Part shown: piece by piece, positions 7,958-40,784 of the stretch
Layout of the letters: each line of letters opens with the position of its first letter
Position numbering within the stretch: the stretch's first letter is position 1
From: Minisyncoccota bacterium
GTDB lineage: Bacteria; Patescibacteriota; Minisyncoccia; RBG-13-40-8-A
Reading direction: 5' to 3'
NCBI GenBank assembly: GCA_035528175.1
Contig: DATKZC010000025.1
Location: 431 to 64,430, forward strand
Length of the DNA stretch: 64,000 nucleotides
Notes under the pieces: generated by a model
Seen by the model: only the letters and a program-made list of their open reading frames with translations
What the model was told of the DNA's origin: nothing
The model's database searches: none
Program-made: the position numbers and the translations under genes

Positions 7958-7987
7958 ACAAAAAAGGGGTGGTCTAGGACCACCCCT
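7958..7987 (-). terminator. Rho-independent terminator for tyrS
   Basis: GGGGTGGTC-TAG-GACCACCCC hairpin at 7966-7986. On the minus strand it is followed by a U-run (A-run 7959-7965 on the plus strand). Confidence 0.6.
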
Positions 7988-8008
7988 ACTTTATTTCTGA
8001 AATCAAAT

Positions 8009-9193
8009 TTATACGATTTTCACAAAAAATCGTTTTCCTTTTTGAATAATACTATTTCGATTAACTATAATGTCAATCGATTTTATTTCTTCGCCGTCAA
8101 TTTCAATCCCGCCCTGTTCAATCAATCTTTTTGCGTCTCCCCTACTCGTTGCTAAATTTGTCTCGACTAAAACATCAACAATATTCTTTCCTGCTAATTT
8201 ATATTCTTGGATTTCATCCGGTAAATCTTTTTTCTGGAAAACCGAGACAAAATATTTTTTGCCATTTTCTGCGCCTTTTTCTCCCCAATATATTTTTACA
8301 ATTTCAAAAGCCAATTCCATCTTAATATCGCGCGGATTTGTTGTTTCCAGTAATAATTGCTTTTCGTATCCTCTGATTTTATCCATATCAATGCGAGTAC
8401 AATGCACAAAATAAGTAATAATCAAATCATCAGAAATGCTCATCACTTTTCCAAACATATCTTCTGGTTTATCTGTAATATTAATTGTGTTTCCCCAACT
8501 TGAGCTCATTTTTCTGCTATCGGTTCCCAGAATCAAATTAGTCATTAAAATGTCCTGCGCTTCTTGTTTGTAATGTTCCTGTAGAGTCCTGCCTGCCAAT
8601 AAATTAAATCTCTGGTCTGTTCCGCCAAGTTCAACATCAACCTTAGTGGCAATACTGTCATAGCCCTGCATTAGAGGATATAATAACTCTCTCAAAGAAA
8701 CGTGCCTTCCTTCTTCTAATCTTTTTCTGATATTCTCTCTGGCAATGAACTCCCCTAATGAAAACTGGTTTGCTAATCTGCCGATTTCACTGAAATTAAG
8801 TTTTTTAAGCCATTTTGAATTATGTTCAATTTTGGCTTTTTTAATATTGATAATCTTTCCTGTCTGCTCAACATAATTTTTCATATTTTTCTTAATCTGC
8901 TCCTCGGAAAGCATCGGCCTTTCGGAGTCCTTGTCAGAAGTATCGCCTACCATGCCCGTAAAGTCGCCTATAACAAAAATAATCTCGTGGCCAAGCTCCT
9001 GAAAGTCCCTCATTTTCAGCAATGTGACTGCTCTACCAATATGGATATTAGGGCTGGTGGGGTCAATTCCAAGCTTTACTCTTAATTTTTTGCCAGACAT
9101 CAATTTCTCACGCAAGTGCTTTAAATCAATCACCTCGCTCACCCCACGGGTCAGTATCTCTTCTATTTTGTTTTCATCAACTTTTATACTCAT
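8009..9193 (-). CDS. tyrS: Tyrosyl-tRNA synthetase
   Basis: GIDPTSPNIHIGR (HIGH-class motif), KMSSS (KMSKS motif) and a C-terminal S4-like RNA-binding domain (RLIEQGGIEIDGEEI). Confidence 0.85.
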   Translation of the reverse strand: MSIKVDENKIEEILTRGVSEVIDLKHLREKLMSGKKLRVKLGIDPTSPNIHIGRAVTLLKMRDFQELGHEIIFVIGDFTGMVGDTSDKDSERPMLSEEQIKKNMKNYVEQTGKIINIKKAKIEHNSKWLKKLNFSEIGRLANQFSLGEFIARENIRKRLEEGRHVSLRELLYPLMQGYDSIATKVDVELGGTDQRFNLLAGRTLQEHYKQEAQDILMTNLILGTDSRKMSSSWGNTINITDKPEDMFGKVMSISDDLIITYFVHCTRIDMDKIRGYEKQLLLETTNPRDIKMELAFEIVKIYWGEKGAENGKKYFVSVFQKKDLPDEIQEYKLAGKNIVDVLVETNLATSRGDAKRLIEQGGIEIDGEEIKSIDIIVNRNSIIQKGKRFFVKIV

Positions 9194-9225: not shown

Positions 9226-9296
9226 CTGCGGGACAGGGATTCGAACCCCGATCGACTCCTTCAAAGGGAGCTGTCCTACCATTAGACGATCCCGCA
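9226..9296 (-). tRNA. tRNA-Gln (anticodon UUG), 71 nt, CCA not encoded
   Basis: Reverse complement reads TGCGGGA-TC-GTCT-AATGGTA-GGAC-A-GCTCC-CTTTGAA-GGAGT-CGAT-CGGGG-TTCGAAT-CCCTG-TCCCGCA-G. It has a 7-bp acceptor stem, T-loop TTCGAAT, anticodon loop CU-UUG-AA, a U1:A72 pair and G73 discriminator, as in bacterial tRNA-Gln. Confidence 0.7.
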
Positions 9297-26400: not shown

Positions 26401-27327
26401 TTATTTTCCGCGACGCTTCTTCTCAATGAAATAATCTCTCATTAATATTGCTCCTTCATCCTGCGTATCTTTGGCTTCACAAATTACAACAGGATTCAAA
26501 CCTCTTTTTAAGATAGCGTCAATAAAGGGTTCGACCTGAGGATAATATCTATCATCATTATAATAGTCATCTTTTGAAAAAGCTAATTGATTACCTTTTG
26601 TTTTATCAGAAAATGCCTTATGACCCTTCTCTCCGGTATGATCTATTCCTACTGGATACATATGAAAATGACATTGTTTTAACATTTTCTTGCCCAAATG
26701 TTTTTCAATAGTGTCAAAAATGTTCAATATGTCTTCGGGAGCTTTTAAAATTCCTCCTTCGCGTGCATGCAAGTGTGCCAGATCTAGACAAGGTCTTGCA
26801 AAGTTGACCTTGTTACAAATTTCTATAATCTCCATTAACGACCCTAATTGATTTACCTTGCCTGATATTTCAGGATATATCTTAATTTTTTCTGTCGGCA
26901 AGTCGTCCTTAATTTCATTTAGATTTTGAATAAGTTTATCTAGTCCTGCTTTTCTATCATTATCAGAAGTGCCTGGAAAGTGTCCTGGATGAAAAATTAT
27001 TCTCTGCGAGTTTATTAGTTCTGCCAGATGAAATGCTTTTTTAATTCTCTCTTGGGATCTTTTTACTATTTCTTTGTCCTTGCTTGCAAGAGTAATGTAA
27101 TAAGGGGCATGAATTGAAATTCCAATTTTATATCGCGAGGCTAATTCTCTATATTTAATAGCTTGCTCATCAGGCATCTTAATTCCGTAAGTATTCTGTA
27201 ATTCAATCCAATTCAAACCAAGAAAATTTAACCATTGAAAAATATTTTCTCGCTTATTTTTAAAATCACTTTTAAAAAAATTCGGGGGGAAACCAGCAAC
27301 GCCAAATTTAACTTCGGGTTCAGGCAT
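26401..27327 (-). CDS. nfo: AP endonuclease family 2 (endonuclease IV-like TIM barrel) with a C-terminal extension
   Basis: HAPYYITLAS (Endo IV: HAPYLINLA), IFHPGHF, and CLDLAHLHA metal-binding His/Asp pattern. Confidence 0.55.
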   Translation of the reverse strand: MPEPEVKFGVAGFPPNFFKSDFKNKRENIFQWLNFLGLNWIELQNTYGIKMPDEQAIKYRELASRYKIGISIHAPYYITLASKDKEIVKRSQERIKKAFHLAELINSQRIIFHPGHFPGTSDNDRKAGLDKLIQNLNEIKDDLPTEKIKIYPEISGKVNQLGSLMEIIEICNKVNFARPCLDLAHLHAREGGILKAPEDILNIFDTIEKHLGKKMLKQCHFHMYPVGIDHTGEKGHKAFSDKTKGNQLAFSKDDYYNDDRYYPQVEPFIDAILKRGLNPVVICEAKDTQDEGAILMRDYFIEKKRRGK

Positions 27328-27353
27328 ATTTATAACAATTTATTTTGCATTTT

Positions 27354-27563
27354 TTATTTCTTGATATAATCAAATCTCGGGATTTTTTTGCCATCTATTT
27401 CAACTTCTTCCAAAAACATTTTTAAAGGGCGTACCCAAATCTGATTGTCGCCATATAATGCCCGATACATAACCATATCTTCTTGCGTTTCACTATGCTT
27501 GGCTATACCAATCACCTCGTATTCATTTCCTTTATAATGTTTATATTTCCCTAATTTAATCAT
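27354..27563 (-). CDS. DUF1653-family small protein
   Basis: YKHYKGNEYEVIGIAKHSETQEDMVMYRALYGD matches the DUF1653 core. Confidence 0.55.
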   Translation of the reverse strand: MIKLGKYKHYKGNEYEVIGIAKHSETQEDMVMYRALYGDNQIWVRPLKMFLEEVEIDGKKIPRFDYIKK

Positions 27564-27641
27564 ATTATTTTTGCTACAATATTTTTATTCCTCTTAGCTC
27601 GAAATTTGACAATTATTCAAGATGGGATTAATATAAAATCA

Positions 27642-27756
27642 TTCGTGTCAGCGTAGGACAATGTCCGAATAACGAGGCGTGCGTGAGACGCCTACAAGAG
27701 ATAAAATCTCGGAGACTGACCCTTCAGCCAGTTATTAAAACGCTGGCTTTTTTTTA
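27642..27756 (+). ncRNA. Candidate small structured RNA with its own promoter and intrinsic terminator
   Basis: TTGACA (27606-27611), 17-nt spacer, TAATAT (27629-27634). About 115 nt with nested hairpins: GUCAG...CUGAC closing stem, GGAC-AAU-GUCC, AGGCGU-GCGUGAG-ACGCCU and GAGAU-AAA-AUCUC. It ends in an AGCCAG-N11-CUGGCU hairpin plus U8 (27726-27756). No plus-strand ORF follows. Confidence 0.35.
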
Positions 27757-30255
27757 TTTCCCATGACACTTCTTATATTTCTTACCTGAACCGCACGGAC
27801 AGGGATCGTTGCGGCCAATATGTTTTGTTTGTTGGCTACCTTGCTGGCGTTGCGGGCGGGTTAATTCTACTTTCAACAACATCTCAACAATCGCATTATC
27901 AATTTCTTCCAGCATGTGCTTGAATAAACGATGACCTTCGTTTTTATATTCAACCAATGGGTCGCGCTGTCCATAGGCGCGCAAACGCACGCTCTCGCGT
28001 AAACATTCCATTGTTTCCAAGTGTTCCATCCAAAGCATATCAATTGAACGTAATGATACAAATTTTTCCAATCCCGCTCTCTCATTTTCAGGAACATCCC
28101 CGCCCAAACCTTCGGATTGTGGCGGGCCTGCCTGTTTGCGCTCCGCGCTTACGGCGGATTTCTCAAATTTATTACAATATTGCTTATACTCGTCTTCTGT
28201 CATTAATTCCTTAATTTTTTGATGCATCTCTTTATCTGTTGCTTCGAATAAAATTTCTTTTCTCATTTTATAAATCGTTTCCCTGTGCTTATTCATCACC
28301 TCGTCATATTCCAAAACATGATTCCTAATATCAAAATTATATCCTTCAATTTTTGCCTGCGCTTTTTCAATCGCCGATGAAATCATTTTATTTTCAATCG
28401 GCTGATCCTCGGGAATTTTTAAAGCATCCATCAGGGTTTTAATCCTCTCTGAACCGAATCTCTGCATCAATTCATCTTCCAATGAAACAAAAAATTCGGT
28501 AGAACCAGGATCGCCTTGCCTACCGGATCTTCCTCTTAATTGATTGTCAATTCTTCTTGCTTCATGGCGTTCAGTACCAAGAACATGAAGCCCTCCGGAT
28601 TCACAAACTCTTCGACTCTGTTCGGGGTCTTGGGGATTACCTCCCAAAACAATATCAACTCCACGACCTGCCATGTTGGTTGCAACCGTCACGGCTCCTA
28701 ATCTTCCTGCCTGGGCAATAATCGCGCCTTCCCCCTCGTGCTGTTTAGCATTTAAAATTTCGCATTGTATTCCCTCTATTTTTAAGAGCATTCCCAAGTA
28801 CTCGTTTTTTTCAATAGAAATCGTGCCTATCAAAACTGGCTGGCCTTTTTTATGGCGTTCTTTTATTTCCTGAACAATCGCTTTAAATTTCCCCTGCTCG
28901 GTTTTGTAAATCTTGTCTGGCAAATCTTTCCTAATCATCGGCTTATTAGTCGGCACAACTATAGTGTCCAACTTATAAACCTTATCAAACTCTTCAGCAT
29001 TGGTTAATGCAGTTCCTGTCATTCCAGCTAATTTGTTATACATCCTAAAAAGATTCTGGAAAGTAATTGTTGCCAAAGTTTTCGATTCCTTCTGCACTTG
29101 TACATTTTCTTTTGCTTCCAATGCCTGATGCAACCCGCCGGAATAACGCCTGCCAGGCATCAGCCTGCCGGTGAATTCATCAACAATAATTACTTCCCCA
29201 TTTTTAACTACATAATCTTTATCTCTTTTGAATAAAACTTCTGCGCGTAAAGCTTGCTCCAAATGATGCACTAATTGGATTCCGGCTTCATCATAAATAT
29301 TCCCAACTCCCAAAACTTTTTCCACTTTATCCATACCCTCATTAGTTAAAGTAGCTGCGCGCATTTTTTCATCAATTTTAAAATCAATATCCCTTTTTAA
29401 TTGCGAAGCGATTTTGGAAAATTTCTTGTAAAGCTGGGCTGATTCCACATCCGGAGCGGAAATAATCAAAGGAGTTCTGGCTTCATCTATTAGAATACTA
29501 TCTACTTCATCAACAATTGCATAATTAAAAACTCTTTGCGCCATATTATCCTTATCATAAGCCATATTGTCCCGCAAATAATCAAATCCGAATTCATTAT
29601 TTGTTCCATATAAAATATCACAATTATAAGATTCTTTTCTCGAGATCGGTTTTAAAAAATCATCAATTACCTTAAATCCGCCCAATTTATCACGTTCCTC
29701 GTCTAATTTTAATTCCGGCTTGCCCGCCGAAGCCTTGGCAAAGGCGGGATCGTAAATATAAGAAGTTTCATGGTTTATACATCCAACGCTCAATCCAAGA
29801 AAATTATATATTTGCCCCATCCACACTGCATCTCTCCTTGCCAAATAATCATTAACTGTGATTAAATGCGCTCCTTTGCCTTCCAAGGCGTTTAAATATA
29901 ATGGCAGGGTTGCAGACAAGGTTTTGCCTTCTCCTGTTTTCATTTCAGCAATCATTCCTTGGTGTAAAATTATTCCGCCCATAAGCTGAACATCAAAATG
30001 CCTTTGATTTAATGTTCTCTTGGCTGCTTCTCTAATTAAGGCAAATGCTTCTGGCAAAATATCATCCAAGGTCTCTGACCTTGCCCCGAGCGCAGTCGAG
30101 GGGTTTAATCTATTCTTAAATTCAGAAGTTTTTTGTTTTAATTCCTCATTTGAAATAAGCTCGAATTGAGATTCAAGCTTATTTATTTCATCAACAATCA
30201 ACTGGATTTTATTCAAATACCTTTTATTCGGGTCTCCGAATAATTTCTCAAACAT
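27754..30255 (-). CDS. secA: Preprotein translocase ATPase SecA
   Basis: DEAD-like motor motifs ([37 protein letters not shown]) and a C-terminal zinc finger [14 protein letters not shown]. Confidence 0.9.
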
Positions 30256-30256
30256 T

Positions 30257-32044
30257 TTATAATGTCGTTTTATCTTCTCCTTTTGGATACCAGTCCAATT
30301 CTGATTTGTTAATTATAAATATTGATTCCGGTTTTCCGCCTTGAGATAGAAAGTTCTCGCCGGTTATGTTTAACCAACTTAAAATTCCTGTATCCTCGCC
30401 GGATATTTCCAGTTTATAAACTTTGTCTTCGCTTACGTACCTATAATAATTAGATGTCTTGAACGCGTCTCTTACTTCCGGACTAACGGTTTTAACTGCT
30501 TTCCATCCGCCAGTCAAATGGCCGTACATATTAAAGATAGCAGGATTAAGAAATAATCTTTTGTAGCCATATTGGCTAATGATGAAAATATCAAAATCAC
30601 CAACTGCCCTGATTAAATCTCCTTCTTTTAATCCAAAATCTTCTGGCTTGGGCAATTCTTCTCCAGGTGGCTCAACCGGCTCATCAAAAAGATCCGTAAA
30701 TGCGGAAAGAATAAAAGGATTTGTCGGTTCATTGTTTTGAAAATCGCTTTTCTTAAATTGATTAGAGATAGCAATCGTAACTGAATCAACTCTTGTTTTG
30801 AAATCAGGTATTTTCAGGATTCCGCTTTGATTTTCTAAGGTTAATTTTCCAACCACTGTCTGCTGATCTATATAATCAACAATATAATAAACATTAAAAT
30901 CACCCTGTCCCATAAAACCTTCAAACTCAATTTCCAAATCTTTAGCAATAGTGCTTGCATCCTGTTTATTAACAAAACGATACCAATATGGCGACCAATC
31001 TTTTACCTGCTGCGCAATATTAATTACGTTTGCTGATACGATGCTGTAAGTAATTGGTGAAATCTGGACATTTCCTTTCAAATACGGATTTTTGTAGCCG
31101 TATATGCCGCTATAAATTGATTTGTCATTCAGATAATTAGCAATTGCCCAATTATTAAATATCTGAGAAAAAGTAGAACTATATCCTTTTTCTCTTAACG
31201 CCTGTTCAATGCTGTAGATTCCAACTTTATTGTTTTTTATCATTAAAGAAAAAATATCTTCTCCGAACTGCTCAGCCAGATAATGGCCCAAAAGATTCAC
31301 TGATGGATAATCATACCTGTCGCCTTTCCACTCGGTCAGAGAATCTGATGGTTGAAAAAGAAAATCTTCAACGCGCCTTTCTAAGTTGCTTCCTACGTAA
31401 TCGCTATCCAATCCAGCTACTGTTGAAGCGTATTCACTCCTTAATTCATTAAGCCAAATATCTTCTTGGACATTATTAAGTCTTTGTTTTTGATTCCAAT
31501 TAATCATATGCTGCAATTCATGAGCAATCAAACCGTGAACTAAACTAGTGCCAACCTGGCTGACATTAATATAAATCATTTCTCTGTTATTGGAAGTGGG
31601 TTCCTGTAAGCTGGCGACTTCATCTCTTTCATTAAAATATCCTCCTGCTGTCTTTTTTAACTGTGTGAGGAGAATTGTAATTCTTTCATCGTTATCAATT
31701 CCAGGATTCCATTCCGAGCCAAAAATATATCTCAAAGAAGGATATGTTTTCTCATTAAATTGGACAGCAATGTCATCTAGTCCATCAAGAAAAGAACCTT
31801 GCTGGACCAAAGACAATTCTTGCCAAAATGGATCTTCAACATAAAAATAAGCATTAGCAGAAACCTTTTGCAAGGTAGCTGCTATTTTTGTTCTTGTTTC
31901 ATAATCAAAAGATGAATCAACAAAAAATTCACTGCTATCGCCGACTTCAAAAACAGCAAAAACAGAACAACTGCAAATAATAAAAATCCCGCCTGAAACC
32001 AGCAGGATTGATAAAAATTTATTTTTTCTTAAAAGGGAAATCAT
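30257..32044 (-). CDS. Secreted putative zinc metalloprotease (HExxH) with a C-terminal beta-rich domain
   Basis: Start moved to the internal M ([23 protein letters not shown] signal anchor). [14 protein letters not shown] HExxH motif. The track's 75-codon N-terminal extension runs through a GC-rich structured intergenic region and was rejected. Confidence 0.45.
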
Positions 32045-32317
32045 AAAAATTTTGCGTTGCCAAAGGAGCCGGGAAAGTAAAACCCCAATACTTGGTATTA
32101 AATGGGTACTAGTTCCCGGACTCCTCAAGCAACACAATCTATAGTTTAAGTATAGCTGATACGAATAATGTGTGTCAAACCCCTCGACTTCGCTCGGGGT
32201 AAAAAGAAAAACGTCGACTAAAAGCCAGACGTTTTTCCCCAAGTATAGAGTTTTCCCTTGCGGGATCACCCATTCAACTGTTTATATACTAGCAGGTAAA
32301 AAATTCGTTGTCAAGCA

Positions 32318-33046
32318 CTAGTAAGAAAATTCGGCGTCTATGATAATATCCTTGTCAAATTCCTGACATCCAAGAGCGAAAATTTTAAACATTGGAGAGA
32401 TATCGGCTCCGTCTAAAAATTCCAGAGATTTGTTTTCGCTGAGTTTCAGTTCAATCAAAACCTCAAATTCCAAAAATGTTTCTCTGTCATAAGGATAAAT
32501 ATCACCCAAAGGATAATCAGAGAGTTCTATGAGCATATATTCTGTACCACCTAATTTTATTTCCTGCTCATAACCGTTCACCACTAAAGTCATTTTAGAG
32601 ACATATGATTTTTCCAAAGCATAAACCTTGTCTTCTCTGATGCTTAATTTATCGCTAAAAAAATATAACCAAAGTTTACGGATATCTAAAATTGTATTAA
32701 CGGGATTTTTAATTTTGTATTTACCTAAACTAATAGTATTAGATTCGCCATTTTTAGATATTGCCCAAATTTTATCTGGTTCTTTTGTTGTTGTCGGCTC
32801 AATGGTTGCCGGGCTTGCGCAGCCATATTTGGAGAAATCCGTAATTACTTCAGAGCGCCTAAGATTATCTTTAAGAGAAATTGGTTTTGGCTTATATTCT
32901 TCCGAAGTTGAATTATTTGGTGGATTTGGGTCGTCTCCTGGTTTCTGATAATCAAGATAGATGAAAATTACTGCAACAACTACAGCTAAAATAACGGGCG
33001 CAATTATAGCCCAGTTGATTTTTTTGCTTTTATTTGTATCTTCCAT
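32318..33046 (-). CDS. Membrane-anchored extracytoplasmic protein of unknown function
   Basis: N-terminal TM, a Pro-rich linker (DDPNPPNNSTSEEYKPKP) and a beta-rich domain. Confidence 0.35.
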   Translation of the reverse strand: MEDTNKSKKINWAIIAPVILAVVVAVIFIYLDYQKPGDDPNPPNNSTSEEYKPKPISLKDNLRRSEVITDFSKYGCASPATIEPTTTKEPDKIWAISKNGESNTISLGKYKIKNPVNTILDIRKLWLYFFSDKLSIREDKVYALEKSYVSKMTLVVNGYEQEIKLGGTEYMLIELSDYPLGDIYPYDRETFLEFEVLIELKLSENKSLEFLDGADISPMFKIFALGCQEFDKDIIIDAEFSY

Positions 33047-39781: not shown

Positions 39782-39782
39782 T

Positions 39783-40784
39783 ATGCCGAAAATAAAAATC
39801 GGATTCATAGGATATAAAGGGCACGCAATGCGTTTAATCAAAATATTCTCAAAAATAAAAGATTGCGAGATTTCTTATTTTTATCATCCGGAAAAAAATA
39901 TAGACCTCAAACAAATTTCAATAACCAATAAATCGAAGCTGATTGCAACGCGCAATTTAAAAGGTATGTATTCGTGCGACTGCATTGTAATCTCCTCTCC
40001 AAATTATAGTCATTTCAATTATATTAAAAAACTATTGAAAAACTATAAAGGATATATATTTTGCGAAAAACCACCAGTTGCAAATCTGAAAGAATTAAAT
40101 GCATTAGCCAAAATATCAATTAAAAACAAAAAGAGAATTTATTTTAATTTTAATATGCGATTTAGTTTTCTCAATGATGTTTTAAAAAATTTCTCTCGAA
40201 AATATAATCTTGGAAAACCCATAAGAATAGCAACAACGGTTGGGCATGGATTGGCCTTCAAAAAGTCTTATAAATCATCTTGGCGAGCAAAAAAAGAATT
40301 ACACAAAACCGGAGTACTAGAAACGTTGGGAATTCATTATTTTGATTTAGTAAGTTTTTTGTTCGGCTCACCGGAAAATTTTTGCTATAAATCCGAAAAT
40401 TATTCTCCATACGGCAATTCTATTGATACAAGTCATTTATCGTGTAGCTTTAAAACCCATTGTTATTTCAATTTGACTTGTAGCTATTGCATACCATTTA
40501 TAGAAAACACACAAATTATTTATACAAACGGTTTAATTGAATTAAATGCCACCGAGATAAAAGTTTTTGGACCAAGGGAAGTTTTTGACAAAAAAGGATT
40601 TTTTACCAATCCTCCTTTGATTTTTAAAAAATCTTTAAATAGTGAAAAATTATATTTTGAATCTTTGGTTATGTCCTGTGAATACTTTATTGATTGTGTT
40701 CGCCGAAAAAGAACAATAAATCCGAAATATTTTAAACAAAGCATACTTTCTAATAAGATATGTTTAAACACTGTAGAAAATTAA
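39783..40784 (+). CDS. Gfo/Idh/MocA-family NAD(P)-dependent oxidoreductase
   Basis: Start set at MPKIKIGFIGYKGHA (Rossmann GxxGxxG). The longer 39729 start in the track overlaps the rSAM gene. EKP motif (FCEKPPVA) typical of the family. Confidence 0.55.
   Translation: MPKIKIGFIGYKGHAMRLIKIFSKIKDCEISYFYHPEKNIDLKQISITNKSKLIATRNLKGMYSCDCIVISSPNYSHFNYIKKLLKNYKGYIFCEKPPVANLKELNALAKISIKNKKRIYFNFNMRFSFLNDVLKNFSRKYNLGKPIRIATTVGHGLAFKKSYKSSWRAKKELHKTGVLETLGIHYFDLVSFLFGSPENFCYKSENYSPYGNSIDTSHLSCSFKTHCYFNLTCSYCIPFIENTQIIYTNGLIELNATEIKVFGPREVFDKKGFFTNPPLIFKKSLNSEKLYFESLVMSCEYFIDCVRRKRTINPKYFKQSILSNKICLNTVEN

Follow-up and report, generated by a model that had tools for sequence, protein, structure and literature searches.

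A putative convergent transcription unit lacking an open reading frame in the variable interval between secA and secD of a Minisyncoccota bacterium

The secA-DUF1653 spacer

The DNA analysed here, hereafter the window, is a stretch of 64,000 nucleotides from a contig of a Minisyncoccota bacterium, whose genome is compact, has few spacers and has a G+C content of 35.5%. A spacer of 190 bp separates secA from a DUF1653 gene, and an earlier reading, made from the sequence alone (the sequence-only reading), had proposed a novel structured small RNA (sRNA) on the plus strand of this spacer. The genome is a Patescibacteria MAG of Paceibacteria/Portnoybacteria-like affinity, and the encoded SecA has its best matches at 72-76% identity among GTDB species and at 86% in a large protein database. 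The main features of the locus are listed below, where the minimum free energy fold is abbreviated MFE.

27354..27563 (-), DUF1653 gene, 69 aa (PF07866, E = 8e-33)
27565..27605 (-), spacer part adjoining the DUF1653 start; its last ~12 nt (AAAAATAATATG) are common to relatives
27606..27634 (+), sigma-70-type promoter-like site, TTGACA-17-TAATAT, 10/12 matches
27641..27755 (+), predicted non-coding transcript of ~115 nt, convergent to secA, from promoter and terminator
27647..27720 (+), closed four-way junction body, MFE of the body alone
27647-51/27716-20 (+), helix P1, GUCAG/CUGAC
27656-59/27663-66 (+), helix P2, GGAC-AAU-GUCC
27675-80/27688-93 (+), helix P3, AGGCGU-GCGUGAG-ACGCCU
27698-02/27706-10 (+), helix P4, GAGAU-AAA-AUCUC
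27726..27755 (+), intrinsic terminator, 6-bp stem AGCCAG/CUGGCU, 11-nt loop and U8, from sequence and a strict scan
27754..30255 (-), secA, 833 aa

All the sequence features described in the sequence-only reading were found where it had placed them. The flanking genes secA and DUF1653 are both on the minus strand, as it said, and no credible plus-strand ORF follows. The locally GC-rich body that it noted is also apparent: the 80-nt G+C maximum of this spacer is 0.53, against 35.5% for the genome, which equals that of the tRNA spacer and is higher than in all other spacers of the window. The candidate is single-copy in the 64-kb window. The remainder of the part that adjoins the DUF1653 start (27565..27605) weakly resembles the SEC-C-coding end of secA (GGAATAAAA..TTGTAGCAAAAATAA) and is possibly a decayed copy of it.

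Promoter and terminator signals

The promoter that had been read here is present, with the -35 hexamer TTGACA at 27606-27611, the -10 hexamer TAATAT at 27629-27634 and a 17-nt spacing, and it predicts a transcript start near A27641. The match alone is not significant, since sites that agree with the promoter consensus at 10 or more of its 12 positions are present in the window at chance frequency (40, against 34.5 expected from shuffled sequence). True promoters in the window are sigma-70-like, as seen in the two sites with 12/12 matches (40863(+) and 35914(-)) and in the secD promoter (TTTACA-17-TACAAT, 26391-26363 (-)), which is nearly invariant across the window and the related loci L085, L086, L091 and L093; the candidate promoter is thus at least of the right kind.

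The hairpin and U8 said to lie over the secA stop were likewise located at 27726-27755. The stem-loop occupies 27726-48, its 11-nt loop ends in ..UUAAAACG, and the T-run at 27748-55 overlaps the secA stop codon (27754-56). Our first promoter/terminator scan passed over this terminator because its loop is longer than 8 nt. Strict hairpin plus T-run sites number only five in 64 kb, and a promoter 50-200 nt before such a terminator occurs three times in 64 kb against 0.1 expected. The other two of these modules are one at ~7965-8076 (-), which is simply the normal terminator of gene 8009-9193, and a conserved element at 32209-32314 (-), which is described in the last section. An apparent 738-nt spacer at 39782-40519 is an ordinary 351-aa ORF.

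The candidate hairpin is not the terminator of secA, since the minus strand reads GAAGGG after it and has no U-tract. The promoter scan found no minus-strand promoter in the spacer. With neither a promoter nor a terminator on the minus strand between the two genes, the mRNA of the secA-DUF1653 operon probably reads through the spacer; the overlap of the two genes in L086, described below, was also counted toward this read-through. On the plus strand, the promoter and the intrinsic terminator enclose no ORF, which is the layout of a free-standing sRNA or a cis-antisense RNA, drawn here from consensus signals only. The free-standing transcript claimed in the sequence-only reading therefore stands as the most economical reading of the arrangement, and as a prediction where transcription itself is concerned.

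Fold of the body

For the body alone, the four-way junction drawn in the sequence-only reading is the exact MFE (-21.9 kcal/mol). In the full transcript the MFE is -33.7 kcal/mol, against -29.5 kcal/mol for the junction fold; it retains P2-P4, but nucleotides 27647-54 pair with 27740-47, and this pairing replaces P1 and the terminator. The nested closed helices thus hold for the isolated body, whereas at full length P1 is dropped. The body is also no stabler than shuffled sequence: for its 84 nt the z score is -1.28 and 20 of 200 shuffles are equally stable, so that its folding energy is not clearly below that of shuffles. At full length, the z scores are -2.5 (plus strand) and -2.4 (minus strand), and the pairs of P1-P4 give no indication of strand since all are Watson-Crick. 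The four-way junction is probably incidental and not a selected fold.

Searches for family membership and homologues

The candidate matches no known RNA family. Rfam 15, searched over the whole window at the gathering threshold, gives only tRNA-Gln (9226-9296) and nothing at the candidate, and in E-value mode over 27500-27850 on both strands the best matches reach 10-15 bits (E > 2); these sub-threshold matches are to unrelated eukaryotic families, plus one terminator-only match. ARAGORN finds no tRNA or tmRNA at 27300-28000, and again only the tRNA-Gln in the whole window. The junction is unlike a tRNA in having 3-nt loops at the places of the D and T loops and a C at the U33 position. By-eye resemblances to a CsrA sponge, a tRNA-like structure, a hammerhead, SRP RNA and RNase P RNA were discarded, as the defining motifs are missing. 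The view that the element is not SRP RNA, 6S RNA, tmRNA or tRNA is thus upheld by Rfam 15, whose families also cover RNase P RNA, riboswitches and ribozymes, and by ARAGORN.

Homologues were sought at several levels. Searches with nhmmer and blastn found none in the secA loci of 80 related GTDB species, among which synteny 3' of secA is not conserved. The closest relatives, identified through protein searches with SecA, DUF1653 and the AP endonuclease, never carry the candidate. In ~880 kb of the relatives' loci, a covariance model built from the junction of this one sequence has no match other than to itself. A degenerate loop/junction pattern run against JGI metagenomes, which did not return the window's own contig, gave one match, which we attribute to chance since it lies in a GC-rich ABC-transporter gene and its 'stems' are non-complementary. 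Four patterns run against IMG/VR, and BLAST against phages and plasmids, gave nothing meaningful. The only further copies are in 100% identical contigs of the same strain (L081-84).

In the collections searched there are accordingly no homologues with compensatory changes of the kind that would define a new sRNA family. For the claim of a novel structured, functional sRNA, the comparative test is decisive and its outcome is negative: no related locus searched has a homologue, by sequence or by covariance model, and there is hence no covariation. The multi-helix fold is also no stabler than shuffles. Lack of conservation and covariation in relatives is also what the sequence-only reading had itself named as grounds for giving up the claim.

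The interval between secA and secD in relatives

The candidate is absent from relatives whose SecA is 85-86% identical to that of the window. In L086 and L087 (SecA 85%), DUF1653 overlaps the secA stop and leaves no spacer. At a distance of 1.2 kb, almost every base of the secD promoter region aligns among the window, L086, L085 and L093, and the region therefore serves as a yardstick for conserved non-coding DNA at this evolutionary distance. Since this nearby region still aligns in the relatives, the absence of the candidate is a real indel and not the result of divergence. Between the secA end and the secD promoter lies a slot whose cargo differs from genome to genome, as listed below.

Window: the candidate, DUF1653 and an AP_endonuc_2 gene
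L086: DUF1653 alone
L092: ASCH, DUF1653 and a convergent 125-aa membrane protein
L090 and L093: small ORFs
L085 and L097/98: a convergent 127-135-aa membrane protein
L095: empty, the secA end (..KKYKKCCGK*) abutting the secD promoter

The most informative of these loci is L091, whose DUF1653 gene has 83% nucleotide identity to that of the window. Between its secA stop and DUF1653 start lies a convergent 85-aa ORF with a Shine-Dalgarno site. On the DUF1653 side, a promoter read from the sequence (TTGACA-17-TAATCT) is placed like that of the window; the promoter scan did not list it, as its -10 matches at only 3/6 positions. A terminator (GAGCA, an 11-nt loop ending UUAAAAC, UGCUC and U8) abuts the secA stop. 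The reading of the window element as a free-standing plus-strand transcript is strengthened by this similarly bounded convergent gene in the same slot. The placing of a terminator on the secA stop is also seen with the convergent 125-135-aa membrane-protein genes in L085, L092 and L097. The body of the candidate is no more similar to the L091 ORF than shuffles are (scores of 19 and 20.4, respectively), and nothing is conserved between the hexamers of the two promoters, which could be independent of each other.

Two families of small convergent proteins are present in these slots, and neither has a Pfam match. One is a multi-pass membrane protein of 125-135 aa (MNIKKIGK..VAIYANIGYW..; L085:12760-13143, L097:8482-8889 and L092:840-1217, all (-)), and the other, at L091:144-401 (-), is 85 aa long and combines a transmembrane segment with a CxxC..CxC motif. 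A remnant of a protein gene was considered as the source of the candidate and set aside: six-frame translations are uninformative, the longest open frame (44 codons) has no protein relative among 1.84 billion representatives, and the sequence is unlike both the L091 ORF and the membrane-protein cassettes.

Two ORF-less convergent modules also adjoin a SEC-C stop, at L085:12564-12684 (-) and L099:8519-8681 (-). Both consist of a promoter-like site, a body of several hairpins and a terminator whose U-tract lies over the stop, and their folding z scores are -3.8 and -2.9, respectively. The likeness between the two is weak and lies largely in the terminator and SEC-C end; nhmmer gives no link between them. 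Homology of the window candidate to these modules was rejected, as there is no similarity and the likeness is one of architecture only.

SEC-C remnants and insertion at the secA end

Downstream of the functional secA stop, several relatives contain displaced copies of the SEC-C coding end (..KKYKKC[CH]GK*), which are often intact and separate small cargo genes. The window and its relatives hold the following copies:

26401..26420 (-), displaced ancestral SEC-C end (AGAAGCGTCGCGGAAAATAA), in the last AP_endonuc_2 codons directly before the secD promoter
27565-27600 and 27340-27365 (-), possible further SEC-C remnants in the window
L086:12640-12687; L092:515-562 and 745-792; L090:2516-2563
L093:196-243 and 1149-1196; L085:12665-12712; copies also in L002, L014, L071 and L099

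A copy on the sense strand within 2 kb downstream of the functional stop is found in 13 of 77 loci; in none of the 77 does the antisense strand or the 2 kb upstream have one. Together with the empty slot of L095, which shows the ancestral state, this distribution suggests that insertions took place one after another at the 3' end of secA and restored the motif. These reduced genomes have a secA-secD interval that turns over fast and keeps a record of its insertions as SEC-C remnants, and small convergent units, coding or non-coding, recur in it.

In six loci (L001, L002, L008, L014, L027 and L071), GC-rich hairpin elements with GCGAAGTC(CC) and GTAG motifs occur right after the secA stop, where an alternative SecA end (..HPDGRPIKYKHC[HC]GK*) precedes them and a second, intact SEC-C end follows. 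They are also found elsewhere in the same genomes (for example, at L071:1817) and look REP-like.

Interpretation of the candidate

The reading that we tentatively prefer, though with somewhat less than even confidence, is that the candidate is a lineage-specific, ORF-less convergent transcription unit in the hypervariable slot between the secA end and the secD promoter. Judged by its place, it is the positional counterpart of the small convergent protein cassettes of the relatives. Descent from such a cassette would be argued from position alone, as the body is unlike any cassette. The promoter and terminator would have been inherited from, or would have arrived as, a convergent cassette that lost its coding part or exchanged it for an unrelated GC-rich stretch of 80 nt, and RNA polymerase would still make an RNA of ~115 nt. 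Given read-through from secA, this small RNA would be perfectly complementary to the secA-DUF1653 intercistronic region and could act in cis, either through duplex formation and RNase III-type processing or through transcriptional interference. The outcome would be that expression of DUF1653 and of the AP endonuclease is uncoupled from that of secA. We infer both of the steps involved, from the presence of signals to transcription and from transcription to an action in cis; at most, the candidate is a strain-specific antisense transcript in an insertion hotspot. As it stands, it is one more unverified strain-specific sRNA prediction from a promoter and a terminator, with a negative comparative test, and it matters little.

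Another but rather doubtful explanation is that the spacer is inert debris of insertion or recombination, in which the promoter arose by chance, the hairpin stabilises the 3' end of the secA mRNA or blocks stray antisense transcription, and no discrete RNA is made. The chance frequency of promoter-like sites, the z score of the body (-1.28) and the absence of the candidate from all relatives searched fit this explanation, as do the displaced SEC-C remnants and variable cargo of the region. Moreover, an A-run after the SEC-C stop is common in relatives, so that any hairpin there automatically resembles an antisense terminator. Against it, a perfect -35, a 17-nt spacing and a strict terminator at an sRNA-like distance are jointly rare, the same arrangement drives a real ORF in L091, and the lack of a U-tract on the secA strand orients the hairpin to the plus strand.

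A bolder model, and in our view an unlikely one, takes the SEC-C end as a site-specific insertion hotspot of this Patescibacteria clade, where single-gene and ORF-less units are added in succession and each insertion restores the end and pushes the old one downstream. The candidate would then be cargo in the form of an RNA-only cassette (promoter, RNA and terminator), with a convergent transcript that insulates or processes the secA operon.

It is distinctly improbable that this lineage has newly evolved, or acquired, a structured sRNA that acts in trans or binds protein and whose functional form is the four-way junction. Selection for an RNA structure could account for the G+C content, which is comparable to the tRNA spacer's, and for the neatly closed junction; the junction is all Watson-Crick and is the MFE of the body, the element has its own promoter and terminator, and it matches no known family. 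However, there are no homologues and hence no covariation, the body is no stabler than shuffles while the minus strand folds equally well, and the element is missing in relatives with 85-86% identical SecA and single-copy in the window.

We give very little weight to an insert at the secA stop, either a miniature mobile element of the MITE, REP or PATE-like kind or a cassette of RNA only, in which the hairpins would serve as signals for recombination or transposition and not as RNA structure. In its favour, the slot is a hotspot for insertions, the slots of relatives carry the GCGAAGTC/GTAG GC-rich hairpin elements that are also found elsewhere in their genomes, and AAATAA-like direct repeats flank the insert. 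The flanking repeat, however, is only 6-7 nt of A/T and not significant, the candidate has neither terminal inverted repeats nor the motif of the relatives' hairpin elements, and no second copy exists in 64 kb or in any relative searched; the multiple copies with terminal inverted repeats or a common palindrome that mark MITE and REP elements are thus not seen within the 64 kb and the relatives.

Slightly less probable again is a riboswitch-like leader on the minus strand, serving DUF1653 and the AP endonuclease in a read-through transcript from secA. Its position directly upstream of DUF1653 is suitable and folding is equally good on both strands, but in L086 and L087 DUF1653 overlaps the secA stop and has no leader, the regions upstream of other DUF1653 genes are unrelated, Rfam is blank on both strands, and it is the plus strand that has the promoter and terminator signals. 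DUF1653 orthologues thus occur without the candidate. Nor is it a leader or riboswitch of a plus-strand gene, as the sequence-only reading had recognised, since the plus strand has no gene downstream.

Finally, a small-protein gene is scarcely credible: relatives do have small convergent protein genes in this slot, but the sole plus-strand ORF, of 27 aa with a GTG start and GAGG 5 nt upstream (27683-27766), begins inside the P3 loop, runs through the terminator to a stop 9 nt beyond it and has no protein relative.

Comparison with known systems

In Escherichia coli, GadY is a cis-encoded antisense sRNA that lies opposite the gadX-gadW spacer. The candidate, as we prefer to read it, is like GadY in being a short, convergent non-coding unit with its own promoter and intrinsic terminator, complementary to an intercistronic spacer, and its predicted action, duplex formation and processing, is the same. 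Unlike GadY, it is known from sequence signals alone and is not conserved, the sense read-through on which it would act is itself only probable, and it has no known dependence on RNase III or Hfq. It also resembles lineage-specific orphan sRNA predictions, which share the consensus signals, the GC-rich spacer and the lack of an ORF. It differs from the usual predictions of this kind in that the comparison with close relatives made here reveals an indel and not a diverged homologue.

The displaced SEC-C ends can be compared with the traces of genomic islands, which also integrate at tRNA and tmRNA genes. The island SGI1 is reported to enter the 3' end of a protein gene, trmE, and to restore it (PMC8409611). 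As with SGI1-type islands, displaced 3' ends of the target gene mark successive insertions downstream of secA. Unlike such islands, each unit of the slot cargo, 0.1-1 kb in size, is one small gene or is ORF-less, no integrase lies close by, and neither an att core nor a recombinase was identified at the slot; among the ORFs at 20-36 kb of the window, no integrase-like gene was seen.

Integron cassettes without an ORF exist, and the candidate is like them in being a small non-coding unit at a cassette position among single-gene insertions. In contrast to integron cassettes, the secA slot shows no apparent attC-like imperfect palindrome, intI or attI, and its repeats are remnants of coding sequence.

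Conserved units upstream of the secA operon

The scan for a promoter followed by a strict terminator also pointed to 32209-32314 (-). The region 32040-32325 (-) that includes it is far better conserved than the surrounding proteins in L085, L086, L097 and L099, and nhmmer finds it in L001-L004, L006 and L017 as well, with weaker matches further out. Two units, each with its own conserved promoter, can be recognised in this region:

32283-32201 (-), unit A, sRNA-like, ~80 nt
32148-32048 (-), unit B, hairpin of ~90 nt
Homologues of A/B: L085:6875-7089; L086:6654-6869; L097:3888-4168; L099:3943-4186; L002:1859-2129; L017:1857-2170; also in L004 and L006

Both units show compensatory changes, in 8 of 22 pairs of the long terminator of unit A and in 13 of 32 pairs of the unit B hairpin. 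A small GNRA hairpin in unit A lies between two single-stranded segments, GUUGAAUGGGU and AUACUUGG. Both segments have their complement in the apical loop of unit B (ACCCAUUCAAC-A-CCAAGUAU). These predicted pairings between the units also covary, with CUUGG:CCAAG in most genomes, CUAGG:CCUAG in L099, CUACG:CGUAG in L004 and L006, and GAAUGGG:CCCAUUC against GAGUGGG:CCUACUC in L006. Unit B ends at the true ATG (32044) of a membrane protein of ~595 aa that directly precedes secA. Since this is the start codon of the first gene of the operon, unit B would be the leader of the secA operon. Neither unit is matched by Rfam.

From their sequences, units A and B together look like a conserved sRNA-leader pair, or one bipartite RNA, that controls the secA operon in Patescibacteria. 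They are a far stronger novel-RNA candidate than the element in the secA-DUF1653 spacer. To our knowledge, the regulatory RNAs of Patescibacteria are essentially uncharted, and for that question it is the conserved pair at 32283-32048 that merits further work.

Between units A and B, at 32199-32180 (-), the window has one of the REP-like GC-rich hairpin elements described above (CCCCGAGCGAAGTCGAGGGG). The start of the gene downstream of unit B also needs correction. The mechanically listed ORF at 30257-32269 (-) has 670 aa and a GTG start that lies too far upstream, so that it swallows units A and B; the conserved start is the ATG at 32044 (M I S L L R K..), which gives ~595 aa as in L086.
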